DNA of 63,833 nucleotides, counting the filler, from Sphacelaria rigidula (taxonomy: Eukaryota), in the NCBI GenBank assembly GCA_964200075.2. It is 10 parts of 10 records of this genome, joined end to end, with 100 filler letters (N's around TTAATTAATTAA, not from the genome) between each part and the next. Parts side by side here need not be neighbours in the genome. Positions count along the whole stretch, not along the records: positions 12,789 to 19,082 come from CAXNAA020020959.1; positions 19,183 to 25,476 come from CAXNAA020020960.1; 8 more parts are not named here. One strand, given 5' to 3'. This document shows positions 1-53,669 of the stretch, piece by piece. A program made the translations under genes and the position numbers. Position 1 is the stretch's first letter; every line of letters starts with the position of its first letter. A model generated the notes under the pieces. The model made no database searches. It was not told the origin of the DNA and saw only the letters and a list, made by a program, of their open reading frames with translations.

Positions 1-344
1 TTGTTGCTTGCCTTAGTCATTTGACCATTGACCACGCATCCCTTTCGAGACGGAGCGGGGGGGGGGGGGGAGAATCAACTGCTTCCCTGTTCAAGAGGTC
101 CAAGCCTTAGAGCGATGTTGCCCGAAAATAAAAACGAAAATTTTCCCCCCCCGCACGCATATTTTCAACCAGCCAGCAAACAAACAATTGAGTTACCTGA
201 GAAATGATGAAGTCCGGTGTATATATACACACACGTGTGTAAGAGAGTGTGTACCACAACAAATGCTCCAGTATTATACCGCATTACAAGAGATCGTGGA
301 GACCGCTCTCTTCGAGGGAGAGATAAAAAAGGAACACCACTGAC

Positions 345-3300
345 CTCCGCCGTTTTGGCGTGAAGCGGATATGGTGTAGGACGCGTTGCCGTCGGAGGTG
401 ACGAGGATAAAGTACACGCAGTTTTCGCAGAACTTGGAATCCGAAGACTGGATAAGCACCGTGTCAGATCCTGAAGGGGGTGGACAAGGACCGAGGAGAA
501 ACGGAGCAGCGGACTGAAGCATTAGTTGGTGGGTGTTATTTGTTGCTACCCTGCACTGGTCGACAACAAGCTCAGCGTGACAATAAAAAAACGACTTATT
601 TCACTTCGTCTGCCACGTGTCCACTTGCTTCGCGGATCTACGCACAGTATCGCCGGAGGCATGCGTGACGAAACATTCTCCGTGGATGCACCTAGTACAC
701 CACCTGGGGCCAGAAGATGATCGAACCTCGACGTTCGCCGTCACAAGGTCTTGCTTGCACTGCAGTGCGATCCCGCACACACCTTTATATACCGACGAGA
801 TGTTTCCCATAGCGAAGTTTTCAGAAGCAAGGCCGCCCCAGCGTAGGAGAAAATCGAGTTTTTTTTCATCACCTCGGGTGTTATACTCAATATAACACCG
901 GCGGCACATGACAAGGTCAAGTCACTGGTGCTGAAAGATGTTAGAGTCATTGGATATGCAGCACAGGCTTTCATGCGATTTCCCCCCCAGCAATGATGAC
1001 GACAACACTTGGAGTACGCCAGGGATAAGCATCAGATAGACACAGTCACATCACAGGAATGGTTGGACTGACCTCAACACGCTTGCGATTTGCCTTAAAG
1101 AATTTAGGGGGGTGTTCATACACACAAGCAAGCGCAGGCATCGCGGCTAAAGAGCCGGACAAAAGGTCCTGATGCTTAGCCAATGTGCTTTGCAATGATC
1201 GCCCCGGTGGCGCAGTTGGTAACCTCGAAGCCTTCTGACGGTTGGGTCGTGGGTTCGAATCGGAGCGATCTGAGATTTTTTCTCACACAAGACCCGACAG
1301 TAGAAAGCGACTATGTCGTGGGTACACAAAATTCGACTCAATGGTCGACGAGGGTAATCGATTGAACCCCTCTCGCGATAAAAGAAAAGGGCGAGCACCG
1401 CAGAAGGAAGGTGGAGAACTACAACAACAACAAAAACACTCCTGTGTTGGCCTTCCTCCTGTGTGACCCCGGCTCATACGCCCATATATACCGAAAGGTG
1501 TAGATCGGCGTCCAGAATAGACGGGACGACAACACACACAATAATCGACATGAAGCGGTTATTTTCGGCGTCTTCTCTCAAATGTGCCGAGTCAAATTGC
1601 CGGAGGATACGGAGCATCATCAACCGGAACGGTGACACATCTGACGTTGATCTTCCCGAAAACTACGGAGGGCACGCTGCCGGGAGTTGTGACGTTGAAG
1701 GCATATTTCCCAGGAACGCTCGGCGAACGGGACTTGACGGCGGGCATACAAAGCGCAGAGAAGTTCAGTTTTATCATCCTTCCGCGTCACACACTTCCGT
1801 CGCGGCACCCAGTGTAACATGCTCTGCTGATTCGCACTGCGCAATGATCAAACAACACAGCCGCGGTCTCCAAGCAAGACCTCGTCTCTCAGCATCACGA
1901 ACACACTTACAAAAACAATCTCGGGACAGTCAACAGCACCCTATACAGAAAAACACAAGAAGAAAAAAAACGGTACCGGACGAGCTGCTGTGAAACCCAA
2001 ACTTACCCAAGGCCCCTCCGACCCAGTCAGAGTTGGTTGGTCCCGGGAGCTCGTCAATCGCAGTACTGATATACACGTCGGGGTCCCCAGAGAGCGCCGT
2101 CAATGACACCTGGTTACCAAAAAACAACCGCATTCAAAAAATGAAACATATTTCGGGTCAATTTTCGATGGAATAATGATCGGAACCAGGATTGTGGGTT
2201 ACGCTGTCACTCCCGTCTACACACGGTTTTCACATATGATTCGTTTCCCATCACTTCTCGTGGGAACAAGGAGGACCCGTGCAAATGGAGACATCTTTAA
2301 TGTATTATACATAAAGAATAAAAGCAGTACACGATATGCTGTGAATAAGTGCAAATCATGGGCGCAGACTGGCACGTTTTTTTGTTGAACGGTGGAATAA
2401 TACGCCTTCGAAATAGAAGCGATAGTGTATGACGAACCCCGTGCCTGTACCGTCAAAGCAGTCGACACTTTGACCTCTGAAATGAGGACCACTGAGATTA
2501 GAAAGGCGGCAGTGGGTGCGATTCCCCTGGTCACCGCCTACAAGGTGACATTGAACGGTAGAGAGAGTCGGGAATGATGAAGAAAAAATTGAATTTGTGA
2601 AGAGAGAGTCGGGGATGATGAAGAGAAAATCGAAACATGCGACCCCAGCTGGAACCCTGGGGGGTCACTTCGTGGACAATCAAATCAACCAATGTAAAGC
2701 TGTGGAAGCGGTCGCCTTCGTGAGACGATCTCATCACTATAATAGTCGAGATGTCAATATATCTGCCTGGTGTACGGGGCATGCCGAGCGAAAGCCAAGG
2801 TTTCCAACCACCCGTTGATTGAAATAGGCGTGGATGATACGAGGGGGAGAAGGGTCCACTCATGATCTTGCATGCCGTAGTCATATGACCTTTGACCTCG
2901 TATCCCTGAAAAGCCGGGACGGAGCACGCCGAGTTTTCGCCGGACCAGGCTAGAGGCTGAGGGAGGGAGGTACAATTGCGTGCACTCATTTGTAGACCGA
3001 AATAACCTGTGCGGTGTTTGCTGTGCTTCCTGGTGTAGCTGCCACTACTTACCATATACTTACTCATATAACAAGAGTAGCCTGAACACTAACCTCCCAG
3101 TACAGCAAAGAGACCGGGATGCGGGCGAAATATGGAGCATCAAAAATGCTCTCAGTCGGTGACTCAAAATACCCGCAAGTCAACTTACACTTCTATTCAT
3201 GTGGTCTCAGAAGTCATCATCACTGCCACTTACATGTTTTGAAAATATATATTTTTTCAAAGTAATGAAAATGACCACTACCTACCTGCACGCTGTCGCC

Positions 3301-3517: not shown

Positions 3518-3789
3518 CTGGGCGATCACGATATATATATGTATATATATGGATGAGGAGTACAGTGCCTGTGACTCCTTGTATGTGTGTTCATGTGTGT
3601 CTCAAGATTATGGATTCATAACCACTACAAGAGCTCTCATGATCCCGCCTGGATTCGGACGGGATCAGCTGTCTGCCACCAATCAAATACTCGATCAATC
3701 AGTCAACACGTAACACGGAAGGGCGTTTTGCGTATCGTTCCATTGGGTTCCTGACAGCCATGGGGTACCGACTGGGGGTAGGTGGGGCG

Positions 3790-4290
3790 GTACTTATTTG
3801 TTGCTTGCCTTAGTCGTGTGACCATTGACCACGCATCCCTTCCGAGACGGAGCACCGTTCCTGCTCCTGATAGAGACACCTCTAACATTCCACCGCTGAT
3901 TACGTTTGTTCCACACATTACACAAAAACCTTTTACATATCTTTTCCCCATCCTGTTTCGCCGTCTCTGGCCACTATCTATCTCCTAGTATAGCCATCGT
4001 TTTCTCCCTACGGCCTAATGCATCAAACGATTTTACGCCACCTTCACTTACGTCCCGCCTTTCCCCTTGTAGCATGTCCCGTTCTTCCTTGTATAGTTTG
4101 CATTCTGCAAAAAGATAAATTGTGCTTTCTACTACTTTGCCGCAGGGGCAATTCTGTGCATCTACATCCTCCTCCTCTCAACGACTGGTATATAACTCCC
4201 TGCTTTGTGGCAGGTCCAGGTCCCCAGCCCGAGATCGCAGTTTCAGATTTTTCGCAGCGTCCATTGGGCCATGCAAATATTTTTTTATCC
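3790..4290 (-). mobile_element. 5'-truncated non-LTR retrotransposon (family A, ORF2 C-terminus). Other copies: 1-56(-), 5305-5592(-), 19252-19298(-), 38142-38262(+), 38363-38620(-), 53670-53956(+), 57120-57235(+)
   Basis: The recurrent sequence encodes (composite reading of degenerate copies) ...CPCGKA.ESxxHxxAEC...AILGDRWWPQTAKQ...CNVWKKR...RNGAPSRKGCVVNGQxTKASNK*, a CCHC knuckle plus WxxR typical of LINE ORF2 ends. Copies share the 3' end and have variable 5' truncation. Confidence 0.8.
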
Positions 4291-4402
4291 CTCTCCCCTC
4301 TCTCAACCCCCCGTATATCTTCAGGTGTTCTTCCTAATCTACTTCACGTATGAGCGCTCATTTTCCCCTTATTTCTGTCATGTCTCTTACTTTTGTCTTG
4401 TA

Positions 4403-5293
4403 CCCCGCACCTTCATCGGAACCCCAAGACGAAACACTGCACACGTGGCACGAGAACGAGTATGACTCGTGGCACTCGCACTCGTTGGGCTGCTCGTTGG
4501 CCGTAAACATTAATAGGGGCAATACTCGAGTCGTTGCTCGTTGTGAAAAAAAAATTGGGCGAGTACTCGAGTCATTGCTCGTCGTGGAGAAGTAAATGAC
4601 TTGAGCACTCGAGTCATTGCTCGTTGTGGAAAAAAATGATGGGGCGAGTACTCGAGTCATTGCTCGTGGTGGAGAAGTGAATCACTCGAGCACTCGAGTC
4701 ATCGCTCGTGATGAACGACTTGAGTGGAGGAGTCAGGAACCCGATGATCGAACAATTATAATGAGCTCTTCGACGATCTTGAACCTGGGATCTGAAGTTC
4801 ATATGCATACATGCACATGTGAAAGCGTCAAGGATCAAAACTCGTGCACCTCCCTCCCCACACGCACAGATCAAAGTTCTATTAGAGCGGCGGAGAGTTC
4901 CTCTCGAGTGGTACATACATAGGACGAGCACTCGAGCCATTGCTCGTTGTGGAAAAAAATGAATGACTCGAGCACATGAGCCATTGCTCGTTGTGAAACA
5001 AATCAATGACTCGAGCACACGAGCCATTGCTTGTTGTGAAAAGAAATGATGAGTCGAGCACACGAGTCATTGTTCGTTGTAAAAGAATTGATGAGTACGG
5101 GAGTCATTGCTCGTTGTGAAAAAAGCCAATGACTCGAGCACACTTATCATTGCCTGTTGTGAAACAAATCAATGACTCGAGCACACGAGTCATCGCTCGT
5201 TGTGTTTTCAAAAAATATCCACGTGTGCACTCGTTTCGACGAGTAACGACTCGTCCGACGTGTAAAATACTGTTTATAGATGAAGGCGCGGGG
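4403..5293. mobile_element. Non-autonomous TIR element filled with ~42-45-bp subterminal tandem repeats; related array at 11560-11910
   Basis: CCCCGCACCTTCATC (4403-4417) is the inverted match of GATGAAGGCGCGGGG (5279-5293). The internal unit is roughly GAGCACTCGAGTCATTGCTCGTTGTGGAAAAA. Confidence 0.6.
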
Positions 5294-5699
5294 CGTGGGG
5301 AGATTCTTTTGTTGCTAACCTTCGTCATTTCACCATAAACCACGCATCCCTTTTGTGATGGAACACCCATTCCTACCCCTTACTGAGGCGCGCCTCCGAC
5401 ATTTTGGCAGCTCATTGCGCGTTTTTCATACAATACACAAGGACCCTTCCCACATATTACCCCCCCTCTTGTTCCCCGTCTGTGGCAACCATCCATTTCT
5501 GAGTACTCGTACGAGTATGGCGATCGTTTCTTCGCTACTGTATAAAGTACCAAACGACTTTATGTCATCTTCGATGAGTTCTCTCACCTCCTCCTGGGAG
5601 GCGGTAGAGAAGGGGGCGAGTAAAGCACACCACATGAACAAGGACAGCATCAGCTTACACGCTAGCGCTGACATATTTTTCAAAAGCGGGGAGGTAGTC

Positions 5700-6229: not shown

Positions 6230-6266
<37 letters not shown>

Positions 6267-6294
6267 ACCCCCCCCCCCCCCCCCCGCCCCCCCC

Positions 6295-6394
6295 NNNNNN
6301 NNNNNNNNNNNNNNNNNNNNNNNNNNNNNNNNNNNNNNTTAATTAATTAANNNNNNNNNNNNNNNNNNNNNNNNNNNNNNNNNNNNNNNNNNNN
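6295..6394. other. Artificial contig linker (N44-TTAATTAATTAA-N44). Identical linkers at 12689-12788, 19083-19182, 25477-25576, 31870-31969, 38263-38362, 44656-44755, 51049-51148 and 57442-57541
   Basis: An identical 100-bp spacer with stops in all frames separates pieces of 6294, 6294, 6294, 6294, 6293, 6293, 6293, 6293, 6293 and 6292 bp, which indicates size-sorted, concatenated contigs. Confidence 0.98.
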
Positions 6395-7719
6395 GTCTAA
6401 AATCGTTAGGAGCCCCTGAACCAGACAAAATTTCGCGAAAAAAGTGCACCCCTACCGTAGCATTGCTCAGGCGAAGTCTTACATGTCGGAATGAGATCCT
6501 CGCCTCGTGTTGGGGGTTTCACGACGGAAAAGCATCCTCCGGTGGCAACAGTATTTATTTTTTACGAAATCAGCTGCCTGGTCCACAGACGGTAAAGACT
6601 ACCAAAAAGTGGCGATATTTTCTAGATTCGAATGTTCGTGATAGTACTTTGACATAAATGTATGCTTGTGCACCAAGAAAAAAAAAAGCCCATCGCTGAA
6701 CACCAATACATCGTGAAACCGCGCCAAGGAGTAGAGCTGGGCAATTTGAAGGCCGCTTCTTATAGACTGAAAAATAAATATGTCGGAGAACTTCCCTTCT
6801 GAACCCTTCATCACGGATTACTGGCGGAATACGGGCCTCGGCGGATTTAGCCTCCTCGGAAACATTTGCTACATGTTTTACGAGGATTCCAGCGCACTTT
6901 TCCGATTGTTTCGACGCCCAGTTTTGCTTTTGACCGGATCCTGATTTTTTTCAGTCGCCGCGAAAATTGTCCAGTTGTCGGGGAAAATACGCCACCTTGC
7001 AGTCGAGGCGTTGACACTGCGGTATTTTCGGTTGATAGAACCTGTTTCGATCGTATTTGTGAAGCAATGTATGAAGCAATGCACGGATTTGTTTGTTTGA
7101 ATTTGTGCGTACTCATCGCACCACAGCCGAACAGCTGTGCTTCACGGTCCGTAACACCCTCCAGAGTCACGGGGTTTCTACTCGTATCGCCCCATTACAC
7201 CATACCACACTAACCTTAAGTTTTAGTTACTTTGAGAGTAGAGCCTCGATTGAGAGTGGGTTCGATCGTTCGCTTCAACTTGACCAAATTCTCGTTGTGT
7301 GTGTGCTTTTCTTCGCCTGTAACGCTGGTGTGTGCTTACAGCAACACATCGATGTCGTCCTCAAGGATATCAAGGGCTTCAATCGTAAGAAACTGCAGGT
7401 GGCATATTGGGCCCCATGGCGGGGCATTTCGGAACTGAGGCTTTCCATTCACTCATTTACCGCTCATCATTCTCAAATCGTATCCTCCACTTCGATCTCA
7501 CGCAAACGCCGTTCAATTTGGGCACTGCGGTTTGAGGACGATCTTTTCAATTATCAACATATACCGACGCCGGAACTCTACAGTTTTATCGGAACTCTAC
7601 AGTTATATCGAAGAGCATTATGCTGTAACACCCACCAAAAAACTCTAAATACTTCACGCGCCCACTACTGCATAGTTGCCGACATATGACGTGAGACCCC
7701 ATGATGTTGGAGGAAATAC

Positions 7720-11559: not shown

Positions 11560-11910
11560 ATTGCTCGTCGAAACGAGTGCATTCGTGGATGTTTTTGAAA
11601 ACACAATGAACATGACTCGAGTGCTCACCCTATTAATTTTTTCCACAACGAACGATGACTCGAGTGCTCGCCCTATTCTTTTTTCCACAACGAGAAATGA
11701 CTCGAGTGCTCGTCCTATTACTTTCTTTCCACAACGAGCAGTGACTCCAGTGCTCGCCCCGTTATTTTTTTTCCACAACGAGCGATGACTCGAGCGCTCG
11801 CGGTATTATTTTTTCACCACGAGCTCCCAAGTCTTTTGCTCCAGTTGTTTACTTTTTCGCATGGTATGACTCGTTTGCTCGAGACATCGTTTTTTTCATC
11901 ATGAGCAATG
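11560..11910. repeat. Tandem array of the CTCGAG-rich ~44-bp unit, reverse orientation relative to 4520-5250
   Basis: Repeated TTTTTCCACAACGAGCRATGACTCGAGTGCTCGCC units. Confidence 0.8.
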
Positions 11911-14900
11911 ACTCGCTTGCTTCCGTTTTTTCCGGACAACCCGAGGACCGATCATCACTCATCACTGAAGTGATGGACCAGTGGGGCGCGAGACATGGTG
12001 GAAGCCTGGTGAAACAACGGTAGAATATGGTAATATCGTGACTATTACATATCGTACTAACCCCTTTGAGACCGCACTCCCCAAAATGGTATGTTTGGGG
12101 CACCTTTCGCCACCATCGTGCGTTGCTGGTTCGCCAGCATCTTTACTAGTAGAAGGGGGGTCGCTCATCGGTCGGCACCAAACGGTACTGCTATTAAATG
12201 TGAATTAAATGTACTACTCGAGAGATACTACCCGTCGCTTTAGTGTGGGGGGGTGGGGGGTTTACTCATCATCATGCGTGCCGTAGTCATCAGACCATTG
12301 ACCTCGCATCCCTACAAAGCCGGTACGGATCACGCCGTGTTTTTGCCGTACCAGGCTCGCACTCAATCACCAAGCGCCAAGCGCCGTGTTGTTTTCGGCG
12401 AGTCGCATGAAGGGTGAGCTACTTCCTGCTCAAGATTGTTCGGCCCGAAGCCTACTGATTATCTTGCATTTGGATGACAGCCAACAATGAGTTGCTTTAC
12501 TTTCTGGTATCGCAACTTCCTTCGAGAGACAGTCACGGCTTATTATACTCTGCCTCCTGGGTGTCTCACCATTTTAACATTACGTCGTACGATCATCCCC
12601 ATTGTGCGGAGTCAAGGTTCGACACTTTCTACAAAAGCCTCCCCCCAAAAAGTGCATGGTTTTGGGAGGCAAAATCTTCACGTAAATCNNNNNNNNNNNN
12701 NNNNNNNNNNNNNNNNNNNNNNNNNNNNNNNNTTAATTAATTAANNNNNNNNNNNNNNNNNNNNNNNNNNNNNNNNNNNNNNNNNNNNCATCCTGCTAAG
12801 ATTGTTCGGCCCAAAGCCTACTGATTATCTTGCATTTGGATGACAGCCTCCAATGAGTTGCTTTATTTTCTGGTGGTGCCACTTGCTGAGACAGCCACAG
12901 CTGATACACTGCCTCACAGGTGCCTCACCATGTAAAAACTACGTGGAACGATCATCCGCATTGTGCGGAGTTGAGGTTCTCCCACGCCGCACAAAATGAT
13001 TTAGCTCGACTACCATCATGGTTACCGCAAAGAAAAACGCAAGCGCGCAAAAAAGAAAGCGATAATCTGGTTGCCTAGCTCACGTCGTGAGTGGCGTGTT
13101 TTATAGCGTCATCGCCAACCGACGCCAACCGCATCGGGAGTCCGTGGGGGGGGTGGGGGTACATAGGATTTCGGAGTTTTTTTTGGTCAGGCACTCCTGT
13201 GTCATCCAAGATTCTAGCTCCTCAATGTGAGGGGTCACATTTTCAACAATTTTCCACATTTTTCAAGGAAAAACAAGCCAAATGCCGCAATTTTTCTCGC
13301 CTCCGGCAGCGCTCCCGCGGGGCCCCGTCAGCAGCCGGGGGGGGGCCCTCGCCACTCGCCGCCGATTATTTTCTGGTTAATCGGCGAAGCGAAAACAATC
13401 GATGTACTGGCCGCTGGCGCCACCAGTTTAAACTCAACTGGCCAGAGCAGCCAGTTCACAGCCCTACAAATAGAAGATGGACCATACGGTTGACGTCGGC
13501 TCGTTGCAGTTGACGTACGAAAGGGACGATGGAAGAAAAATCCAGCAACAATCACTCCATTCTTCCGAGACCCTCCAACGCCCACACTCGAGTGCACAAT
13601 ATATCCATTCCCGCTCTGTCTCGAGTACGTCTATCATGTGACCACGGCTGGATCCCTGGGGGGTCAGTTGAAGTGCGACAGTCAATCCATCAATCCCAAG
13701 TGCACTTTTGAGGACCACGTACCCGGTCATCACAATAGTTTCTCCTTCTGATTTACTATCCTGGAATGGATGATGGACTGCCAGGTGAACCTTCAACACC
13801 ACCACCCAGTTGTTCAGCGGTCGAGACCAACCCCTATGGGAGCCGCCCAGACCTACAGAAGTTACCTTACCTACGGTGATTCGTAGATCGGAATAGATCG
13901 CACAGAAAGCTCTTGCTCGAGGAGATGACACTGAATGATACGCGCAGAATTATGGCCGTTCCGTCAGGACAAGAGACGGTGGTATTTCACATATTTTCGT
14001 GTAAACTGCAGCTTTGCTTCTACACACAGAAGAAAAAGAAGTGTTTCAGCCGGCAGGGCATCACATGATGAGCACCGGGCTGGCGCCTGAACACCGTGTA
14101 ACTGGGCGCGGTTGGGTGTGATTGACAGGAAGCCGCTCGACCGTCTAGTACTGACGGAGCAACAGCAACTTGGGCAACTCTGTGAAGTTAGTTTGGATTG
14201 CACGAGCAGCAGTTCGGGGCTTTCGTGTCCGTCTGCACGGAATTGATTCGAAGAAAAGGCACTAGTATTCTCAAGGCCTTCAGGCCGTCGGACTGCTCTA
14301 TGCCTGTGGTAGTCACCGGAAGGCACACGCCGCTAATTCGGCCTTGTATTCAAACCAACCGTCACCAACCATCAAAGCTCCATTTCGTGACATCGGGTGG
14401 CCGTGGATTCGCCTTGAATGAGATTCGCATTTCGAAGGGATTGCCCGAAGACCGTGAGCAGTTATGACATCAAGACGCCCGAAATTGAGTTGATTTCGTC
14501 TCTACAAGAGTTCATATGAGCCACTTCTGCACCAGACTTTGGTCTCGAATGGCGCGTGCCTGCCCAACGAGTGACTCAGGCTCAGTGTACATACCGTGTG
14601 TAGCAACGAGCGATGGTTGAATAGCGAACGACGACTTACCAGACAAGTCAAAGCTGCAGCGTATTCATTGTCTTGCCCCCGCCGCACAAAACAAAATTGC
14701 ACAACACGACCACCCCATTTTGACAACACCCCCACCTGAGATAAGCTGCGCTTGAGAGAGTCATCGTCATGGCGAGCTTAGCCGTTCCGGTGACAACCAC
14801 CCCAACCCCAACATTTCGTGCTGCATGCGTTGCTCACAGCAACCTACAAGGCATTAAAGATGTGCTTCATCTCCCGACGCAGATTTGCCCGAGGCGAATG

Positions 14901-14929: not shown

Positions 14930-17900
14930 CTGCAGACGAAACAGCTTCCCGATCCGCGTATACGCATCAGCTACGTCTATCGTCTCGGCCTCGCCCAACT
15001 TTCCCAGGCTGTCTCCATACGTCACCGCCTCAAGCCGCGTATCGTTGGACAGCTCCTCCAGTGATCGCCACAAACGGATCGGGGTGTACAAGTCCTTTTC
15101 TTCATAAAAGTCCTTGACCACGGACAGCCTGCCCAAGTACTGCGTTTGGGACTTCACAACACCGTCGACCAAGTCCTTGACCACGGACAGCCTGCCCAAG
15201 TACTGCGTTTGGGACTTCACAACACCGTCGACCAACTCGTGCCCGCCCCCGCTTTCATACTCGTTTTTGATGAAGTCAAACAGCTGGCCGTGTAGGCGGA
15301 AGCGATTTCCCACCTCATGCAATACTGCATTGCACGCTAGGTACTCAGCTTCTTTTCTGGCACCGCTGTGATCCTGCAATGTATACAGTGACGTTAAACA
15401 AGCCAGCGTTACACGCGCGCGATCCTACATTTCGACGGGCCTAACTGAAAGCGAGGTCTCATCACAGAGTAGTCGATGGAATGCTGGATTCCGAATTTTG
15501 CGACACGTCTCTCAGTCTACGTGGCAAGAGGTTCGTACCGTACCGACGTTGAGGCCATGTCCCTTAACCGACGCACGGCGAGTCCGGAACACGAAAGAGC
15601 GAGAGGTGGCAAACTGAACACAACTAGCTTCGGCATTACACTCAACACAAAACTCTTGGGTCGCCGTGAAACTAATGCGTTTCTTATGGCGTTCTCCATT
15701 CCGCAACCGCAGACGCTTGATACTGAAATCGGCTTGATTTTGGCACGGCCGTGAAGTGAACTTGCTGCTGACATCAAGCGCAGATCAAATTATAGCTATC
15801 AGTATACGAAACGAAACGCGAGCGCTGGATATCTTGAACTGCGTATGAGCTCATGGCATGAGAGAATCAAGCTATGCTGACCATCGGGTATACCAGTGCA
15901 AGCACCCGATACACAAAGGGGGGCAAACGGCTCCGTAAAGTTCCACCATTTTTCTCATAACCGTCGCTGGGCAATGCGTACATATCAAGTCATGCAGCCG
16001 ATGGAATTGCGCTTTTAATTGAACCGTACCTTCTTTCCCCAAAGTGCCATCAGCATCCCAGTTGATGCCACAACACCACCCCTGAGCACAACAAGGCTCA
16101 GAAAACTGTTTCGCGCGTCGTGACCAAACGATTCCAGGCGTATGGACAGAGCAGCGAACAACGAAATCTCGGACGGGTCGCTGGCAGTGCCGGTGCCTGT
16201 CTGCGTGCCTGAGCAAATTGCTTTCTTCTTCTCCTTGATCTGGAGGTGCAGCTTATCCCAGTATTGGGCAGAGTTTGGGCTTTCGGTAACACACGGGGGT
16301 GACCCCGCAATAGCTAAGGCCATCGCTAGCCGCCCGCATTCGTCGGCAACCTACGATAGACACATCACGCAGGAGCGGGCCGACGCAGGTGGATAACACG
16401 GAAAGACGAGTCCGGCGCAAATCAGTACTGCGTACAACCAATCGGCTGCCAAGACAACAACCTCGCTCGCAGTCCCACTTCAACAGCGACGCGTTTCATT
16501 TTGTGAATCGAGACATTATTGCGTCAATCAAGGAATTGACAATGACACGAACCATTGATGGGGTCATAGAGTCATGTTCTCTGCTGACATATAGTGACGC
16601 CTACTTGAAGCATCTCACAAACGCCTGCATCATGGACTCCTGGCTATCATACCTGATCAGCCTCTCTCTCCGGAAGTGCCCCCGCGCTGCTCCTCTTCTT
16701 CAGCAGCTCCCGCGCCTCCATTTGGCTCATGCTGCCCACCTCCATGTACCCCCCGGCCGCGGCAAGTACTGCGCGGTCACGCGTGGTCACGAGTAGCCGA
16801 AGTCCCGTAGGAGCCAGCTTGTCCACAACGTCTCGCTTCCACACATCGTCCACCACAACCAGACGAGGCAGGTCACTCTCTGCAACGGCCGCAGTCAAGC
16901 TTTGAATCACCCCTTCCGCATCGTCGAGGTTTCGTGGGCCCATGGGATCCACGATTACCTTGGCGGCTAGCCCCTCAAGGAGCGCTAGAAGTTGAGTCTC
17001 ATCGTCTCGTCCTACGCTAAGCCAGAAGATTCCTCCTCGGAAGTGCCTCCTGATGTCCGGATTGCGAACGACCGAAGATGCCAGGACTGTCTTACCCGCC
17101 CCCCCCGTACCGAATAGTACGTATGGATCACTGACAGGACCAGCCCCTGTGAGTTCAGAAACGATCTCGGACACAAGAGCAGTGCGCTCCACGTAGCTTG
17201 ACGGTTGCGTAGGCGCTTCAGGCGGATCCGTCGCCATATCTTCGGGCACGGCAAGATCCATCTTGGCACGTATTATTCTTAAATTCGCAGCTGCGTCAAG
17301 CATGGCAGCACTCGTAACGATCTTCAAGATTTCCTCGAGCTTTCTCTTGTGCGTCTTCATCTTGCTCCTGTCTCTGGCGTGCGAGCACAACCTTCGACAA
17401 CAAGGCAAGCAGCAGCCCACCTTACCGTCGAACTGTCTGGCAAACTTGGCAATTTTGTCAATCTCGTCTATCACCTGCTTCACAGCCATCTGGATTTGTG
17501 GGGGCAGCTCCGGCATTCGGGCATTTTCCAATATGATACTCGTGATCGACACGCAGTAGCTCAGGAGATCTATCAGTTCCTGCCGAGCAGCGGTAGCTCC
17601 TTCGACGGCGTCGAACAGGGCGCTGAGACCAACACAAACGGGCGTCACGACGCTCACATTAGCCGCATCTAACAACAGCTCAAACCCAGCGATTACCTCC
17701 TTAGTGAGAGTTTCTCCAGCCGTAGCCTCAGCCTCCTCCGCCCCAATAAGTAACGTTTGGTACCACGGCGTGTTTCTTTCGATGGCCTCCCTCGTTTTTT
17801 CCAGCGCCTATTGAACGACAAAATTGCACGCGCCATGCAGCACGCAGGGTAGCAGGTGCGACACGGCTTTCTTCGCTCCGATGGCTACAAATCGGTAGCA

Positions 17901-18280: not shown

Positions 18281-20819
18281 CGCAGCTCCCTGAAAAATAG
18301 TCGGGGCAGGCGGTGGTCGCGTCCAACGAAAAGCAGACAGAGGTGGCGCGAGCCGAAGGTCCGTTAGTATGATGTCTAATGGCAGTGTGCTGCTACCGCG
18401 TTTGACGTACTTGGGGTTGTCCCACCTTTGTCCCTTAGATGCCCGAGTTGAAAATAAGATGGAAATCAACGGGCTGCAGGAGGGCGGGTCCAGCTCTCGA
18501 TAAGAAAGTGCAATGCAAGCACCGGGAGCTGGATACTTTCATCTCTTTAGAACAATAAACTTGTGCTGAACAAAAAAACGGATGAAGGTGGGAATAACAC
18601 ACATTAACGTAGGGTCATACCATGACGTCACGGATGATGCTTGCTAAGCTGTAGCATGTTCATCAACTGTGTTACCAGTTAAAAGGCTGAAGGCTGCGCC
18701 TACTTTTGAATATACTTACTGAAAAAGTGCAAAACAGGCAAGTCCATGATTTGTTCCTCCGCGGTTAAATGCGGCAGTATGAATGAGAGTAGTCAACACG
18801 ATTCGAATATGTGTACATGCAGCTCCTAAACAACACACGCCACGTAACACACTCTGCAGACAGTACTGTTCACGACGTGTTTACGATGACCAATTAAGTC
18901 AGGGTACGACCGCAAAAATATTATCGTCTTGTTTTTGTTATTGTCGGATTATACTGTCTGTACTAGTGTTTGTACCTCGCTCCTGTAAAAACCGTGGCTG
19001 GGAGCTCATGCTCAAAAATTGTAAGGTTCTCAAAGAGCTTTCACGCGCCCCCACCCCCCCCCCTCTCCCCCACCCCCCCCCCNNNNNNNNNNNNNNNNNN
19101 NNNNNNNNNNNNNNNNNNNNNNNNNNTTAATTAATTAANNNNNNNNNNNNNNNNNNNNNNNNNNNNNNNNNNNNNNNNNNNNAGGCGGTGCACGCATGTG
19201 AGAAATGTGTTGTTTTATTCATCTGATTTTGACGCGGGGGAGGGGGGGGGGTACTCATTTGTTGCTTGCCTTAGTCGTGTGACCATTGACCACGCATCCT
19301 GATTTTGACGGGGGGGGGTTCTTGTTTTTGTTCCCAGGAAATTAACACGCAGAAACCCTTCCCGTGTACTTCGCTATCTCTAGTTCCATGTAGCACGTTT
19401 GACCATCGAGGTTACTGTTTTTGTGCTTCGCGCCTCCACCCTCTCAGTATTTGCCATCAAGCACACGCGGCACGATGTCCGTTCGGTGTATAGATGGGCA
19501 CCAAGCAGGGTGCACGGTCCCCCTGTCGAGGTAACCTCGGAGTGTCGGCGATGTTGAAGCTTCAATGCGTTTTGTGTTCCACGTTTTTGCTGTATGAGCT
19601 AAGTATTACGCACTGACAGGGAAGAGTTTTGGATGATTTCTGCAGGAGCATTTATCAGGGTAAGAACACATGCCAAGAGTTATCAGTGACACAAATGAAC
19701 TCAAAGTGACTAGTGTCGCAATGGGTTGGCAAGTTGCATCCGAGACTGGATGTTCCTGCTGCCGTACTCGCTCCTAGGGCGTCGTGGCTGAACGCTCTGG
19801 AGACCGGACCTCGGAACGGCAAAACTGAGCTTTGGATACGAAGACACTAGTATAATGAGGGCATAGTCGAATAGTAACAGACCCGGCCCTGTCCACCCCG
19901 CCAAATATGTTGGATTTGGGTGTCCTTGGGTGCACGTCGGAATAAGGAGTACTGGTTTCGAAATTGAGGTATTTTTCCGCCCATTCATTCGTACTCAGCA
20001 CTGGACCCCGTACGGAGTCCATCGAACAATAAGCCTACTCTGCAAGTATAAGAACAATACTTACTCCTATGTGTACATGGATTGTACGCCCATTGGTCCC
20101 TGAACGGTTAAGGCAGACCACGTGCTTCTCTAAGGACGCGAGGCACACGAATGAAGAGCGGCACTTGGTCGGATTTCGTGTCTTCATCCATAGGATACTT
20201 ATCCAAGCACGGTAGTGAGGGTGGAGTAGAGCACGGGTACGGGTACATGGGGGCATGTACCCTGCAGTACTCAGTATTTTCCGACAACGGATACACCGGG
20301 TGCCCTGGGATACTCATTTCGCAGTCGATGTATTGAGTTCCAGACGCGCTCTACGTTTTGTGTGCATACGCGGCCTGGCGATTGAAAGCGGTGAAGATAT
20401 GCGAGATACACTGATTTTCATCATTGAGTTTGCTTCGATTGCGTTGCGTTTGTTCTTCGTGAAATGCAGAGAAGCCTTGCGAGTGCGGGAAGATATATTT
20501 TCATTTTGCCGAGAGAGTAATCTGCATGTCTTGTGCTTTAATAAGGCTGATGCAACCGATTTTTCCTAAATCCTGCTTTTGAAAGGTGACGACAGAGAAA
20601 AATGCGGAGTGCAAGGTGATTACAAGCGAAAACAAAAAGTCTTACTGCATTGACCAATACTGTTTCTTTCGAGGTGTTACTTTTTTTTTAAAGTGATTTC
20701 GGGAGAAGTACCTAATTGCTGAAGATGTGTAGTTTTTGTCACGTCATCATTCAAGGAGTTTAATGCAAACGGTCAAGCGTTTTTGTCTTGCGTCTGCGGT
20801 TCGCATGTTCATGCTTCAG

Positions 20820-25881: not shown

Positions 25882-28800
25882 GACCCCGGGTACATTCATC
25901 TCAACAACTACTTCGCGAGCCTGGGCAGCCTGTCGCCCTCCATCAAACGTCAAAACAGGCTCGCCTCCATGTCCGAGACCTCAAAAAGCAACAGCAGCGC
26001 ATCGGAATCACCTGCAGCGAGAGCACCAGCATCAACAGCGTCAAGATCATCGTCAAGCGATGAATGCGCCAACGACAGCCCTGCACTAGAAAGAAAGGGA
26101 TCTCGGTCTTTCTTGGATGGGCTATTGGAAGCAGGCGTGAAAGAGCCAATGCTCGGCATCGCAAGGGCAGGGTACGCCAACACTGTGGGGGCCGCGCTAG
26201 AGGATACCGGGCTAGGAGGCGTTTGCTATTGTGAGGGCGAGTGGGATGTGGACGGGGATCACACTTTCTTAGTCAAGGTGATGTTCCCATTCCGCTGGAA
26301 CAGTAGTACAGCTGACAAAAAACTTGTGGAAATGTCTAGTTTCGTCCCAATTATTACCGATGTCCCCCTCGGGGGAGAAGCGCGGCACGTCCAGTTGTAT
26401 TGACGGAGTGCCTGTTTATCGTGGAGTTGATGCTTTTTCATCCTCCAAGATGGCGTTCAGGCTGAGCACGCTGCTGTGACCGTATACTAAAAGTCTGTTG
26501 CACTTGGTAACTCCGAAAGTGTTTCTGTGACAGCACGCGGTAGGCATTGGTCGGAAAGGATGCCAACTGAAGGATGCGGACCAGAAGGTCGTCTGAACTC
26601 AAACCATTGTCGTACAACAAACGAGTAGTTTCTATTTGAGATTCGTGAGTTTTGATGCCGCGTTGTCCCTTTGTTTTGTCTCGCCGCCTATCATCTATCA
26701 CGCGTTTGCTGCGCTTCCCCCGTGTGATAGGGTGGCTTAGGGCTCGTGGTCGACGAGCTGGCTTCCGGAATCAGGAGGTACGGGTCCGTCCGTCGTCCTT
26801 GAACTGCCTCACCTCCTGAATGTGGCATAGTAGGTGGTATGAGGAGCTGCATGGGCTAGCATTTTTTGTTCTCAAGTACGCCGTTGTGTGTAACATATCA
26901 ACCAAGAGACATGGTCGTCTGGTTTGAGGGCTGGGCAACTCGAGTATACTGTGCAACACTTGCGTCATCCTTTTTAAGGGGGGATACAAACGCTATGGAT
27001 AGTACTGTACACCCATTGGCCTCTCTGCTTTTTTCTCCCTTCATACTTGAAATTCCTTCCTTCCTCCTTCCTTCCTTCCTTCTTTCCTTCCCGCGGTACC
27101 AGTCGGCGATGTTGTCCAGGAATCAGTACATCTTTCCCCAAACACCTTCCTGATGTTTTGTTATCGGGGATTGGATCATGACTATCAGCATTCCCGAATC
27201 CGGTAGACTCCCGTCGATTTTTCATTGCTACGAGTACTCCCTTCCCCACGCTTTCAAAAACGTAAAAGAGATTATGCTCGAAAAGAGCATGTCTGCCGAG
27301 ATGCAATTATTCTCCCTACGCTTACACTGGACTAGCCATGCCGAGGTGCGGTGGCTGTAACAAGGTAGCACCGAAGGTGGGGCTCGAACCCACGATCACA
27401 AGATTGAGAGTCTTGCGCTCTACCGACTGAGCTACTCCGGCTTTCCTGTTTTACGTAACTTGTGGCGCAAACTCCACAAGACAAGTACCGCACGGCACTT
27501 TAGAGGCATTGGCGGCTTCATAGCGCTTGATCTCTCTACAATATGGCATGCCTACGATGCGCTTGAAAGCTTCTGCTTGAATCGATTTTCCAAACTAATT
27601 GAACCGCTTTGATTTTTACGACCTATGCAGCTGTGTCCAAACCAGCTGGCCTGCAGCAAAGGTAGACTATGGTACGCCTGGACGTGTACTTGCGACGTGC
27701 GAAGATGGTCGCACAGAGCAAGGCACTCACGTGGTCAGCACGCTGCCTCTCTCCGTCATGCAGGATGGGGTGAGCAGCCATTGTTTTCGTATCTAGAATG
27801 CAATTCCGCCGTTTGGTTTGCACTGAAGGTAAAGCGGTGTCCTGACTCACTGTGAAGCCTGGTGCTGAGTGGATGCCAGTGTGCATTCTAAGGATTCAAC
27901 AACCGAACTATGTGCAAGTAGTCGCATTTTGCATCCTTGTCGCTGTCAAACGGTGTGAAATGCTCTCGAAGCGCAATCGAGGCAATGAAATCCACGCGTA
28001 GACGAGAGGTCTGGCGGCTGCTAACAACACGAGAGACCCCTTGAGGGATTGATTTGTCGTTCGTAGTTGGCCCACCTGTTGACCTTTTGGGATCGTAGAA
28101 CCCCGGTGACACCCGCACAACGGCGCCGCTGCTAACGTCGCAAATATTTGTATTTGCCGTTCCATATACCTGTCAACCTTACCTCTCTCTCTATAGGACG
28201 TCGAGTTCTCGCCTCCTCTGCCGGAGATAAACATGAGGGCATTAAACAAAATGGGCATGTGCAGCGTTTCGAAGGTCATTCTGAAGTTCGATCAGCAGGT
28301 GCTTCCACCGCTCTTGCACAGCTGCATTTCTTCGGACAGCTTCATCCCAGAGTTCTGGTTCAGGTGTGAAACGGTAACCGTCTAGTGTTAGGCGTTGTGC
28401 AACCTCCGGGCCGTCCATGTCCGGTTCCGAGTGTTTTGTTTTTCTAGCCACGCTATCGAAATTTTTACATCATTTGGCCAAATGTCGAAACTGATGATGG
28501 AAGAAATCAACCGTGGATCGCGTTCGCCATGGTGACGTCATCGCTCACCTCTTGCGCAGTTTTCCGGGTTCCCCCCCATCAAGTCCAGACAGTACTTTCA
28601 GACAGTGTACCATAATATCATTCCAGACAACAGCCTAGGAGTTTTCCCGGTTTTTGACAAAACATATCGCCTCTTCATCAACTGGTCATGTCCTTGTCGT
28701 GCATACTCGTACTCCAAAGAAGAGTATTACACATACTTGCACCCGAAAGGTCACGAAAATACGGCAGGATCCGGTGTCCTCTGTCCATGTCCTATTCACA

Positions 28801-30123
28801 TGTTTGAAATCCGCGCTGAGCCCCCCCCCTTTGCCACCGCTAAATATTGCTCGTCTCGCTCTTGCTCTCCATCAACTCGGTGTGGCAACACCCGGCCATT
28901 GTGTAGGCATCTTTCCAATACACCTGAAGGCGGTTACACGGTTCTCGCAGTAGGCTTCGCTGCCGGCCCCGCCGCCGATGCGATATCGGCACTATCGCAA
29001 GAGGAAGCACTGCAGAAGGCCTTGCAGCAGCTCGATAGTATGTTCGGCGGTAGGGATTGGCTGGTGGATTGCGGTGGGTGCACTGGCAAGGGCGACTGGG
29101 AAAACCACAAATCGTCGGAACAAACAACTTCAAGACAACTCTCGCTGAGCGGAATATCAACACATTCTTCCGATGATGACAACAGCGCGGCAAACTGCGA
29201 AGTGAAACGGAGGCACGCCGGCAGAAATGACCAGGATGTTGTCGGTGCTGCCGGTGAACAGACTGTGGTACCCGGAATGCTGCCCAGCGGTTGTTACGAG
29301 GGTGGCCTGGTGCATAATTGGGCAGATGAGCGGTTTGTGCGCGGGGGATACTGTTACCCGAAGCTGGAATTTGACGAGAACACTTATGCTGATGCTGCGT
29401 CTTCAGTGGGAAACAGGCTTTTTTTCGCCGGAGAGCATACAAACATCTCAATGGGGGCGAGCTTGCATGCTGCCATAGATTCAGGAGATAGGTGACCAAC
29501 AATTTTCCCTTGAGGCGATCTCAAATATAGATTTTCCCTGCTGTGACATCACATATTCCGCAACAGAAATGAAATCACGATGACTTACGTCACTTTGATG
29601 GGTTTATTTTTCACCTACTGCATGTGTTGTCGACCACTCAACTCTTATTTTTTGTAGACGATTCGCGATGGAGATTTGTGGGTATTTTGACGCGACTTGC
29701 TTTGCTCATCTGTGTCTTCAGCAGTCGAAACATTCATAACATAGTTTGCTCCTATTAAGAGCAGTCAACCCTCTCACAATAGAGTTTGCTCTCCATTACT
29801 AGGATCGATCGTCGGAATGACCGAACAAGCGTGAAATCCAATATCTAGTGGGTTTGACTTGATCGATTTACCTGTGACTGCTCATCTGCCGACTAATACG
29901 ACACACATATATATATATATATAAATTACCATCATGATCCGGGAGTAGGGCCGCATTGGAGGTGGCGACGTCAGTGAAAGCCGAGCGAGAGGGGCGAGAA
30001 AGGGAGTTCTCGATCAACGCAAGCGCTGTCGGGAGCAAAGCTGTCGGCGATGGCGGCTCGGCGGGTACAAGCTCAATTGAGCGTGTCTCCTCCGCTGACG
30101 ATGAGCTCGCTGTCAGTACCTAA
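25882..30123 (+). CDS. Flavin-containing amine oxidase family protein (polyamine oxidase/LSD1-like catalytic domain); N-terminus outside the contig
   Basis: Six in-phase exons: 25882-26277, 26731-26777, 27631-27769, 28197-28363, 28907-29491 and 29949-30123 (TAA). Motifs: GGLGLVVDELA, VVSTLPLSVMQ, VEFSPPLP...KVILKF, HNWADERFVRGGYCY, RLFFAGEHT...LHAAIDSGDRAA. Confidence 0.9.
27369..27441 (-). tRNA. tRNA-Glu-CTC: Intact 73-nt tRNA with anticodon CTC (Glu) but a tRNA-Lys-like body; antisense within an amine oxidase intron
   Basis: Sequence GCCGGAGTAGCTCAGTCGGTAGAGCGCAAGACTCTCAATCTTGTGATCGTGGGTTCGAGCCCCACCTTCGGTG. Acceptor GCCGGAG/CTTCGGT, D stem GCTC/GAGC, anticodon stem CAAGA/TCTTG with loop CTCTCAA, T arm GTGGG-TTCGAGC-CCCAC. 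Confidence 0.92.
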
Positions 30124-30860: not shown

Positions 30861-31427
30861 GAGTCATGCTACGATAGCGGGGGGGGGTGTTCGATTCCAC
30901 GAAAAAAATGTCTCATAGGTGCGTCAGATAACCCCACACACTCGCGATGCGCTTGTATTTGGGTAAAAGCGATGTCAAACAGTATCAATGAGCGTTATAA
31001 ATCGGAAGCAAGCGCGTTCGAACTACCGTTGCTGCTATCAACGACGATTGCAATGAGAATTTCGTGGAAGAACGCGGCCCAAAATACCCCCCCCCTATCG
31101 TAGCATGCCCCCACGAGGCAGTGTATAAGCTGTCGCTGTCTCGGAAAGTGATGATACCAGAAAATAAAGCAGCTCATTGTAGGCTGTTATCCAAATGCAA
31201 GATAATCAGTAGGCTTCGGGCCGAACATTCTTGGCAGGATGCAGCTCACCCTTCATGCGACTCGCCTAATACACCACGGAGCTTCGCGCTTGGTGATTGA
31301 GTGCGAGCCTGGTCCGGCGAAAACCCGGCGTGCTCCGTCCCGGCTTTGTAGGGATGCGAGGTCGATGGTCTGATGACTACAGTATGGCATGCATGATCAT
31401 GAGTTCACCCCTATCGTAGCATGACTC
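30861..31427. mobile_element. Sola-like MITE (GAG...CTC ends, 4-bp TSD) carrying a family B retro-insertion in its right TIR
   Basis: Perfect 17-bp TIR GAGTCATGCTACGATAG / CTATCGTAGCATGACTC, with GTGT on both sides (30857-30860, 31428-31431). Similar TIR ends occur at ~6449-6468 and ~52125-52144. Confidence 0.7.
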
Positions 31428-36260: not shown

Positions 36261-38619
36261 GCTTCTGCAGCTGCTTTGTGAAGCACAGCATATGCTGCCG
36301 ATGGTTCGCCTCACAAGCTCTTCTCGTAAGGGGGCAGTGCGACATTATTCCGCCCTCAAAATTTCTTCGCGGTGAATGCAAATGATGTGGTACGATTTCT
36401 CGTCTTGGCATACCATGCACCATTTCCCACTAAACGACGAGCCTCCGAATAGATTTCTCGTTGTTGGTAAGCTGCTCTCACTGGAGGATTAGCCCCTGCC
36501 TCCAGAACCCGGGTCGCTAACTCGCCGTACGTTGGACAGGTTTCTAAGGGATGGCAGGAGTGCGTGTTGTTTGGTGAAAGAGACTGCGCATTGCATACGA
36601 TAATCAGGGAATTCGGGACTGAGAAACACGACTGTTGACAAGGGCTTACGCATACTTTGAGCATGTGGTCTGTAATAGAGACGTCCACCATAAGGTTTGA
36701 TATCCATCAACAGACTCTATTTTTACCCCAAAACGCAGCATTTAGCTATTCAAACAGGTAAAAGACTCATCGCTCGTCTCAGGTTGCACATGTAGCATAT
36801 TACCTGTACGTATTCATGTATTCCAGTATTTATCTCGTGCATGACCCTGGCTGATCTGCCCACATATAACGAAAGGCGTAGACTCGCGTCCAGAATTGAT
36901 GGATGACAACACAAGACATGTCCGAGTCGAGAGTGTACCCCACGTATCGGGGATGAAAAATTTACCCACCGCCTTAACTATGGACCATCTAGTCAACAAG
37001 TTACCTAGTTGAGTAGTTATTTACCTGCAGTTGCTGCCACACAACTATTTGTGTAACATTTTCATCCAGTAGTTGTCTACAGGTCACTAGTCGCACAGTT
37101 TTTCCGACCGAAAGTTGTCTACAGGCACGTAGTTGCGCAGTTATTTTACCCAGTACTTATCTAGACAAACACGTGAAAAAAAGAATAATAGTAGAGATGG
37201 ACCGATAGACGTGTCTTACCGAGACGAAAAAGAGCATGTTCCAAAATCACGATACCATCACCCTTTGATTGATCACGACGATAGCACTGTATTGTGCTGT
37301 TGTACCCCAAAAACCATGACTGACATGTGGATTGGATTTTTATCTGGGAACCTTGGAGTGAATATCGTTTATCGTGAGGAAACATAACTTTGCAACCAAA
37401 AGGGGTGCGTCCCAAAATATGGTAGACCTGAAAAGCAAGACACATGCAATTCTGAGGCCCACTGCCCACGGCTAAAAAAGCAACTTGTACATAGCTCGAG
37501 CAGTAGCTTCTGATCAGTTACGTATGAGGTCGTTGGGGTGGAATCATAACCTGTATAGAGTAGTCGACTAGCTGTTCCGGCGATAGTTGCTGTTACACAA
37601 CTAGCTGCCCTCGATTTCCATCCGAGATTTGAGGCTTGTTTACAGCTAACAAGCTGCGTAAATATTTCCGGCCGAGACAAGTTTGCATGGGCTAGTTGCG
37701 TGAAATTTTCGACCGCAAGTCTTCAACAGATAAGTCTGTGCACAGCTTTCCCATCAGATACAGGCTGGTTCACGCTTATTTACCTATAAACACTCATTCG
37801 CAAAACTTCATGTCGTCTTTGAGAGTTAGACCCTGACTTTTTGCACATGTTTCCTATGGATCAGTACGCAACTTTCGAACGTCGAGGGTTTTTTATTCAC
37901 ATTTTCCACCGTTTTCCGGGGGTCCCAGGGTTTGGGGGAGAAATTTGAATCCCGGACCCCCCGAAAAACGGTGAAAAAGTCGAAAAGTAGAAGAAAACGT
38001 CGTCTGTAGTAAGTTGCGCAATGACCCATAATGCGGCACAATTAGAGTTGTAAACTGGTTGCAAAAAATCACAACCAGTTACAGGTATCAGTTACAACTG
38101 GATAACTCGCGGCGGAGTCGCGTAGACACCCCCCCCCCCCCCTGAAATTGCGATTTCGGGTGAGGGACCTAGACCTGCCAGAAAGAAGGAAGAAATATTC
38201 CAGTCGTCAAAAGGACGAGGAAGAAGATGGACAGAATTGCCTCTGTGGCAAAGCAATTGAGANNNNNNNNNNNNNNNNNNNNNNNNNNNNNNNNNNNNNN
38301 NNNNNNTTAATTAATTAANNNNNNNNNNNNNNNNNNNNNNNNNNNNNNNNNNNNNNNNNNNNGTCCTGTTTCGCCGTCTCTGGCCACCATGTATCTCCTA
38401 GTATAGCCGTCGTTTTCTACCTACTGTCTAATGCATCAAACGGTTTCATCCCACCTTCGTTCACGTCCCGCATTTCCCCCTCTGGCAGGTCCCGTTCCTC
38501 CTTGTATAGTTCACATTCTGCCACTATATGACTTCTGGTCTCTATTGCTTTGCCACAGGGCAGTACTGTCCATCTACCTCCTCCTCCTTTCGACGACTGG
38601 TATATCTCTTTCTTTCTGG

Positions 38620-52500: not shown

Positions 52501-53122
52501 AATGTTTGACCGTTAGGACGCGGCGGCGACTGCAATACTGGAACGTAATGCTGCAACGGTATGTTGGGTAGGGAATTTCCTACTCTTGGGCATTATTGAC
52601 AAATCGTACTCTTAACTACCCAAATCTTTGGTAGAGTATTGAGATCGTACTCAACAACGGCCAGATATTGGGTAGAGCATTGCGATCGTACCTGAATCTA
52701 CTTATTGTTTGTGTAGAGTTTGGAGATCGGGCCGCATCAACCCAAAATTTAGGAGAGGAAGCACCCGGCTATTTAACCTACCCAGCACACCCTTGTGATG
52801 TTGCGCATGTGGTCATTTTCCAGATCGGCGGATACGGCGCGCGCAGCGGAGGTCGTGACCTGCGGTTTCACACCTCATCCCGGAGGACACGGCGAAGATA
52901 AGGTGGGGGTCGCTGGCGTTGCTCCTCGTGCTTGATGATTCCCCACGAGCTTGAGCTGACACTTTTAGTACAGTCTCTCCTCGGTTGTGTGTTGCCATCT
53001 GTTCTACGTACGATTGTAGTAGCTTTTTGCTACTCATGAACAGATTTGACGAACGTAGATCAGCTTGCTTCAGCTGCAAAGCTACACAAAACGCGTTAAT
53101 TCTTCCCCCCCCCTCCTCAGCG

Positions 53123-53653: not shown

Positions 53654-53669
53654 CCCCCCTTCCCTCTAT

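Follow-up and report, generated by a model that had tools for sequence, protein, structure and literature searches.

A retrotransposon of Sphacelaria rigidula that ends in C tracts and lies at C/G runs, with a possible poly(C)/G counterpart to L1 priming

The window analysed here, a stretch of 63,833 nt from the Sphacelaria rigidula assembly GCA_964200075.2, carries copies of the 3' end of a long interspersed nuclear element (LINE), designated family A, together with copies of a non-coding partner, family B. It is a composite of ten contigs, consecutive in a fragmented assembly ordered by length, of 6294 to 6292 nt (four of 6294, five of 6293 and one of 6292 nt) joined by linkers of the form N44+TTAATTAATTAA+N44 (6295-6394, 12689-12788 and so on to 57442-57541), so that N runs recur every 6394 nt. 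Because the ten contigs are separate, the copies stem from ten unlinked places; several of these contigs start or stop in the studied repeat or in long C runs. The focal insertion (19223-19316) is situated 40 nt inside the start of the fourth contig and comprises a short family A fragment, its C tail and two copies of a target-site duplication (TSD):

19223-19240, minus strand: 3'-side TSD copy, on the element strand CCCCCGCGTCAAAATCAG
19241-19251, minus strand: C tail of the 47-nt copy, on the element strand CCCCCCCCCCT
19252-19298, minus strand: 47-nt 5'-truncated family A copy, stop codon included
19299-19318, minus strand: 5'-side TSD copy and the full C9 run of the target

The 18-nt duplication, CTGATTTTGACG(C/G)GGGGG, is present at 19223-19240 and 19299-19316 (two matches against 0.04 expected), and one of 100 shuffles reached two matches. 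The interval between the duplicates consists of A+G10 (19241-19251) followed by the 47-nt element fragment (19252-19298), which is 93.7% identical to a full-length copy of the element across 63 nt, tail included. Read on the minus strand, which is the element strand, the site runs C9-GTCAAAATCAG, 47 nt of element end, CCCCCCCCCCT and CCCCCGC-GTCAAAATCAG. A previous reading of the DNA by itself (hereafter the sequence-only reading) had drawn attention to this near-perfect 18-bp duplication around a 47-bp truncated copy, to an extra C-rich segment between element and TSD, and to a TSD that starts with a C run on the element strand; the first two were recovered at the positions just given, and the third is seen both here (19223/19299) and in a second clean case (31087/31408).

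The motif GCAACAAATGAGTA, with at most two mismatches allowed, was encountered five times in the window against 0.5 expected. Four of the occurrences are the ends of family A copies (3791-3804 and 19252-19265 on the minus strand, 53943-53956 and 57221-57234 on the plus strand), and in all four the stop codon of the open reading frame (ORF), TGA or TAA, falls inside the motif and C-rich sequence comes next, just as had been described for the copies at 3790, 19252, 53956 and 57235. The fifth occurrence, at 26614, proved unrelated to the element. Besides the focal fragment, the window contains the following family A features, where L083 denotes the full-length comparison copy:

1-56, minus strand: family A copy interrupted at the contig start and matching L083 at 56 of 56 nt, with 5' truncation at the common ~73-nt point
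57-70, minus strand: C14 on the element strand (G14 on plus), directly before the 5' end of copy 1-56
3774-4408, minus strand: family A copy with the last 204 codons (3797-4408) and a degenerate C-rich tail (3774-3790); 5' junction without a C run
5287-5595, minus strand: old A-like copy with the degenerate C-rich tail TCCCCACGCCCCGCGCC
38129-38262, plus strand: C14 (38129-38142), then a family A copy that is truncated at the 5' end and breaks off where the contig ends
38364-38614, minus strand: family A copy cut by the contig start; 5' junction without a C run
53664-53972, plus strand: family A copy ending at 53956, tail CGCCCCCCCTTCCCCC; starts directly after a family B C tail; TSD-like CCCCCCTTCC at 53654-53663 and 53959-53969
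57100-57257, plus strand: C5GC9+TTCACC (57100-57120), family A copy (57121-57234) and a degenerate C-rich tail with ..CTTTCACC (57235-57257)

The eight A copies start at element positions 4536-5103 of 5150 and span at most 620 nt of the element 3' end, with heavy and variable 5' truncation. The 3' end is common to the five copies that end inside contigs; the other three break off at a contig border.

Family A makes up the 3' end of a retrotransposon without long terminal repeats (non-LTR retrotransposon) with a single ORF that encodes an endonuclease and a reverse transcriptase (RT). The C-terminal 126 residues of the copy at 3797-4174, with X placed at one TAG, match 18 longer proteins at 50-73% identity, and the best named match is labelled Sphacelaria rigidula. 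A full-length copy, the reconstruction of which the sequence-only reading had suggested, exists in another record: L083 is a DNA copy with an intact ORF of 1359 aa that is 88% identical to P0004 (1360 aa), one of the 18 matched proteins, and residues 170-414 of P0004 match PF03372 Exo_endo_phos (E 3e-12) and PF14529 Exo_endo_phos_2 (E 3e-7), followed by RVT_1 at residues 740-989 (E 1e-30). The endonuclease of P0004 is N-terminal to the RT, FADD is present in the sequence, and the C-terminus has a CX1CX8HX4C knuckle followed by ...GCVVNGQMTKASNK; GDFN and D-H, picked out by eye, are putative endonuclease motifs. The L083 ORF is of like architecture: the layout is an N-terminal part, an APE-type endonuclease, the RT and a C-terminal CCHC knuckle. 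The 1067 nt that precede the L083 ORF contain, on the strand of the element, no other ORF of at least 80 aa. RT relatives labelled Ectocarpus have 66% identity. In a PDB search the whole protein matched L1 ORF2p and R2 RT alike (E ~1e-20) and the endonuclease alone reached a best E of 0.03, and atlas clusters and protein names were uninformative for the LINE clade.

Related sequences were sought in several collections. A metagenome scan gave only three related loci (L001-L003), and a scan of viral sequences for the element gave three matches that we judged to be chance. A scan of genome contigs with the 19-nt pattern GGATGCGNGGTCAATGGTC returned 76 loci (L007-L082), one of which (L060, the same locus as L083; G001:C43) contains the element; no further element copies were found in G001 beyond this known one. 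Many of the remaining pattern loci look like one conserved bacterial gene, since an ATG precedes the match and the sequence beyond it continues in a similar way; from the MGCVVNG motif this gene is probably ispG, and the peptide GCVVNG is common to this gene and the LINE C-terminus by chance. The LINE also contaminates annotations (P0002, P0011, L060/L083), including a Sphacelaria gene model that fuses a lipase domain to the LINE C-terminus, and pieces of it are present in records labelled as bacterial metagenome-assembled genomes (MAGs); contaminated gene models and bacterial MAG bins are a practical consequence of the element.

The element ends in a stop codon, then GTACG, then a variable C run, with no poly(A). 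A C tract adjoins all nine A-type 3' ends, five in the window (3791, 5300, 19252, 53956 and 57234) and four in other records (L001, L002, L003 and L060). The window tails are C10TC5 at 19252, CGC7TTC5 at 53956, CCGCCCCACCTACCCCC at 3791, CCCTTCCTCCCCTC... at 57234 and the degenerate C-rich TCCCCACGCCCCGCGCC of the old A-like copy near 5300; those of the other records are CG+C10 (L001), CG+C8 (L002), CGCCTC7... (L003) and CG+C13 (L060/L083). The six best-kept ends thus have C10 or CG+C7-13, and the element proper ends in ...GAGTACG in five of the nine. An A run directly after the element was seen in none of the nine A ends and none of the four B ends; one A end, that of the 53956 copy, has A7 sixteen nt downstream (53974-53980).

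Family B is non-coding and aligns with only the last 59-66 nt of L083 (76-82% identity), the remainder being unrelated. Its copies in the window are:

2839-2951, minus strand: short (~105 nt) family B copy, tail CCCTTCTCCCCCTC; degenerate C-rich tract before the 5' end
12247-12688, minus strand: family B copy, tail CCCCCCACCCCCCC (12247-12260)
12798-13159, minus strand: internal part of family B, 5' end (13144) directly preceded by C5AC8 (13146-13159)
31087-31423, plus strand: family B copy (31108-31407) between C9+TATCGTAGCATG (31087-31107) and C4+TATCGTAGCATG (31408-31423)
53105-53659, plus strand: long family B copy preceded by C9 (53105-53113), interrupted by an N10 gap (53536-53545) and ending ...ATGAGTATA and C6 (53654-53659)

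All four B ends run into C (C6AC7, C4, C6 and CCCTTCTCCCCCTC), and an in-frame TAG, read from the multiple alignment, is present in three of four B copies. The letters just before the tail differ, GAGTAWA in B and GAGTACG in A. Since B has in common with A only the last ~60 nt and the C tail, it was probably mobilised by the family A enzyme, and by analogy with stringent LINE pairs with short interspersed nuclear elements (SINEs), the common 3' ~60 nt suggests that the enzyme may also recognise the RNA end. RNAalifold on ten ends predicted one short hairpin of weak energy (-9.9), and an Rfam search of family B gave no match and no Rfam head.

Two insertions have clean TSDs, of 18 nt with one mismatch (19223-19240/19299-19316) and of 16 nt (31087-31107/31408-31423); both begin with a C run and both include a unique part of 11-12 nt. 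Two degenerate TSD-like cases also start with a C run (53654/53959 and 57106/57243), the latter, within 57100-57257, being a probable decayed TSD. The 16-mer of the B-copy TSD recurs with one or two mismatches at 6449, 30865 (minus) and 52125 in the same sequence context, which indicates that the target was a run of C within a different repeat; 31087-31423 is still most simply read as a duplication. A repeat family that carries C(4-9)+TATCGTAGCAT(G/T)+ACTC is present at 30865-31107, 6449-6464 and 52125-52140; the copies at 30865-30887 and 31087-31107 point towards each other and are similar in inverted orientation across ~40 nt. Contig depth is very high over 51779-52198.

C runs are strongly enriched at the 5' junctions. 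Counting runs of C6 or longer within 20 nt upstream, we found them at five of seven A copies and three of four B copies, against a background over all strand positions of 997/125,426 (0.8%; binomial P ~7e-10 for five of seven). The truncated 5' ends abutting C runs that the sequence-only reading had pointed out are among them (G14 at 57-70, C14 at 38129-38142). The A copies missing an upstream run have their 5' ends near 4408 and 38614, and the fourth B copy has a degenerate CCTCCCTCCCTC before its 5' junction. The base just before the C run is A or T in six of six cases tabulated by eye. The window contains 16 C/G runs of at least 9 nt (the longest of 35 nt), seven of them at A or B junctions, and 12 A/T runs of at least 9 nt (the longest of 11 nt).

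Genome-wide evidence came from Logan contigs aligned to contig 9 at 80% likeness, for the DNA runs X1 and X2 (one sample) and X3 (another sample) and for X6, which is only guessed to be RNA. Summed contig depth reaches 1-8 million in the A and B regions against ~25-70 for unique parts, so that family A appears to be very abundant, summed depth not being the same as copy number. Behind 53965, the last tail C, 732 (X1), 769 (X2), 626 (X3) and 92 (X6) contigs continue unlike the reference, and their consensus begins with a further 15, 23, 16 and 11 C, respectively. Tail-to-head joints are common: an A tail followed by the last ~73 nt of A (53965 to 53893) was seen in 35, 45, 19 and 5 contigs (X1, X2, X3 and X6), a B tail followed by a short A copy (53659 to 53893) in 23, 22, 7 and 4, and an A tail followed by the B form (53965 to 53385-53387) in 10-26 contigs per DNA run. 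In X6, a long C run immediately precedes 53893 in 56 contigs, and the window copy 1-56 is the same short ~73-nt form, preceded by C14.

The reading that best accommodates this material, and one we consider likely, is target-primed reverse transcription with pairing between a nicked G tract and a C tract of the element RNA. From the anatomy, tails, duplications, enrichment and arrays described above we infer a nick position, an endonuclease preference for G tracts, an RNA that has its C tract at the 3' end or close to it, and priming by pairing. The endonuclease would nick the bottom strand within a G tract or at its border, and the freed G-tract 3' end would pair with the C tract of the RNA and prime reverse transcription. 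The top strand would be cut 0-12 nt past the tract, giving a TSD that begins with a C run on the element strand, and tail and duplication would merge into one run. Both nicks inside a long tract would yield an all-C duplication, which would explain copies adjoining C14, and old C tails may serve as preferred targets, which would give rise to tail-to-head arrays with 5' ends adjoining pure C. Most simply, the RNA would acquire its C tract through transcription through the genomic tail of the parent, possibly with slippage. Such a poly(C)/G mirror of the L1 mechanism was the central proposal of the sequence-only reading, and each of its structural predictions held on more data (nine of nine A tails and four of four B tails, a second TSD, and the 5/7 and 3/4 junctions).

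Several points weigh against this reading. Only two TSDs are clean, the other two being decayed and of low complexity, and two of the seven A copies (near 4408 and 38614) have neither a C run nor a callable TSD. The clean B insertion has a shorter run on its 3' side (C4) than on its 5' side (C9), which implies either a nick inside the run or later change in run lengths. C/G runs are generally common in this genome, and the enrichment was calculated for one 63-kb composite against a background that contains the LINE-associated runs themselves. X1 and X2 are one sample that may be the source of the window, and the agreement of the contig consensus is low (0.38-0.49; 0.38-0.44 over 30 letters behind 53965), as is expected if tail lengths and flanks vary.

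An unlikely alternative for the origin of the tracts is that the enzyme itself makes poly(C)/poly(G), by slippage or by untemplated addition of G at the nick, and then homes to such tracts. An improbable relative of this idea holds that the tail is wholly untemplated: RT or terminal-transferase activity would add G to the nicked bottom strand, the RNA would end in ...GAGUACG, and landing by C runs would come from endonuclease preference or homing to older tails without primer-template pairing. The variable tail length (C7 to C13 in assembled copies, longer in the contig consensus), the fixed ...GAGTACG end in five of nine A ends and the lack of any sighted RNA with a C tract fit this account, but A and B differ before the tail (GAGTACG, GAGTAWA) and are both C-tailed. 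That the 5' TSD copies show C runs already in the target has also been counted against it, but this fits pairing and the untemplated account equally well and does not separate the two.

Endonuclease-independent insertion, in which long G/C tracts able to form G-quadruplexes or i-motifs would cause breaks or stalled replication and free G-rich 3' ends would anneal to the C-tract-bearing RNA, draws on the length and frequency of C/G runs (16 of at least 9 nt, up to 35 nt) and on 5' junctions that adjoin pure C runs without a unique TSD part. We regard it as quite improbable, since a Pfam-recognised endonuclease domain is kept inside an intact ORF and the regular TSDs of two insertions, in which 11-12 nt are unique, are typical of staggered nicking; endonuclease-independent events of L1 are usually without TSDs. 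More doubtful yet, and already strongly disfavoured, is the idea that the C-rich stretch is a fixed, templated 3' untranslated region and that the 5' C runs reflect general abundance with no targeting. Mixed C-rich strings such as CCGCCCCACCTACCCCC in older copies and the commonness of C/G runs in the window would suit it, but run length varies and the consensus stays C for 15-23 positions past C7, the junctions are enriched (5/7 and 3/4 against 0.8%), and tail-to-head joints occur in dozens of contigs per run. Sequencing or assembly artefacts, such as poly-G reads of two-colour chemistry, are hardly credible even though long C runs close two of the contigs (at 6232-6294 and 19046-19082), because the runs at issue are internal with unique sequence on both sides and the same junction of element and C run is found in the records of other projects (L001-L003, L060) and in the second sample of the organism (X3).

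If the enzyme does itself make poly(C)/poly(G) and home to it, the family would have seeded its own landing sites, in the form of C/G homopolymers, at tens of thousands of places in the genome, and the element would constitute a homopolymer-tail system independent of cellular polyadenylation and a natural test of how far primer-tail pairing by itself determines LINE target choice. In L1, pairing between the nicked T tract and the poly(A) of the RNA is hard to tell apart from the effect of ordinary mRNA polyadenylation. A LINE working with C and G, and having a tail that does not come from poly(A) polymerase, would separate the two and would open the origin of the tail, the part played by primer-tail pairing and the preference of the endonuclease to separate tests. 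If abundant, the family would also be the source of a large part of this genome's unusual load of long C/G runs. Long C/G runs can form G-quadruplexes and i-motifs, mutate fast and break short-read assemblies (two window contigs end in runs).

Other features of the window concern further repeats and neighbouring genes. The contig-end C runs at 6232-6294 (C35 A C18 G C8) and 19046-19082 (CGC5AC10TCTC5AC10) are preceded by sequence of neither family A nor B and may be tails of further families. GCCGAGATAG+C11 (46325-46345) and its reverse complement G7+CTATCTCGGC (46550-46566) form an inverted pair ~200 nt apart, which may represent a further kind of element bounded by C/G runs. An interstitial telomere-like (TTAGGG)5 is situated at 54427-54457, preceded by GCGCCCCCAC, within a repeat span (54419-54465) that is skipped in the contig alignment, and tandem arrays with a period of ~43 nt occur in opposite orientation in two contigs (4524-5267 and 11602-11824). 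A Pfam scan of six long window ORFs identified an NB-ARC domain (E 8e-15) in a 386-aa open frame (16650-17807, minus) and a flavin amine oxidase match (E 2e-11) at the end of an open frame at 28536-29492 (plus); the NB-ARC frame is in keeping with a host like a brown alga, as brown algae have many such genes. A 534-aa open frame (38640-40133, plus), adjoined by a family A copy at 38614, gave no Pfam family and starts with a ...LGHRISTDGIAPD... stretch that resembles the RT/RNase H junction of LTR retrotransposon Pol. A tRNA gene at 27369-27441 (minus, 70.5 bits) is the sole Rfam match of the window at the gathering threshold.

Among known systems, L1 has a poly(A) tail, a TTTT/AA nick and TSDs that start with A runs. 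The present element resembles L1-type target-primed reverse transcription in its APE-type endonuclease and RT in one ORF, heavy 5' truncation and homopolymer tail, and in TSDs whose first bases are the tail letter, as expected if the nicked strand pairs with the tail. It differs in that the poly(A) tail and A-rich TSD start of the L1 clade are absent from the ends studied: the homopolymer is C, which ordinary polyadenylation does not supply and which would have to be transcribed from the parent or made by the enzyme. A possible further difference is the lack of an ORF1 within the 1067 nt that precede the L083 ORF. The PDB search sets the RT as close to R2 as to L1, and partner B has a specific 3' sequence in common with the LINE, unlike Alu with L1.

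A second group for comparison is the 'stringent' LINEs with simple-repeat tails and SINE partners, of the CR1/L2 type such as eel UnaL2, and the I factor with (TAA)n. As in these, the 3' end here is a short repeat and not poly(A), and the non-autonomous B has the terminal ~60 nt in common with its LINE, suggesting recognition of the RNA 3' end. In contrast to them, the repeat unit is a single C and the TSDs start with the same repeat, which is more L1-like and points to target pairing.

The sequence-only reading had known of no description of such a system, and our literature search for a poly(C)-tailed LINE likewise found none, Repbase, Dfam and supplements lying outside its scope; a catalogued consensus with a (C)n tail may exist without discussion. 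Brown-alga genome papers, in the text excerpted from them, name the LINE classes Jockey, RTE, L1, CRE, CR1, I and Tx1 without tail features (PMC5144679, PMC4421812, bioRxiv 10.1101/2024.02.19.579948). APE-type LINEs that target microsatellites are named in the excerpted text of PMC3812793, namely Waldo (ACAY), Mino (AC), Kibi (TC), Koshi (TTC) and Dong (TAA), and by analogy the present element appears similar to them in its insertion in or next to a simple repeat that matches its own tail and in its arrays. It differs from these elements in that a C/G homopolymer is not among the targets named in that excerpt, in that its preference is not absolute (two of seven A copies lack a C run), and in that its targets include short runs in other repeats.

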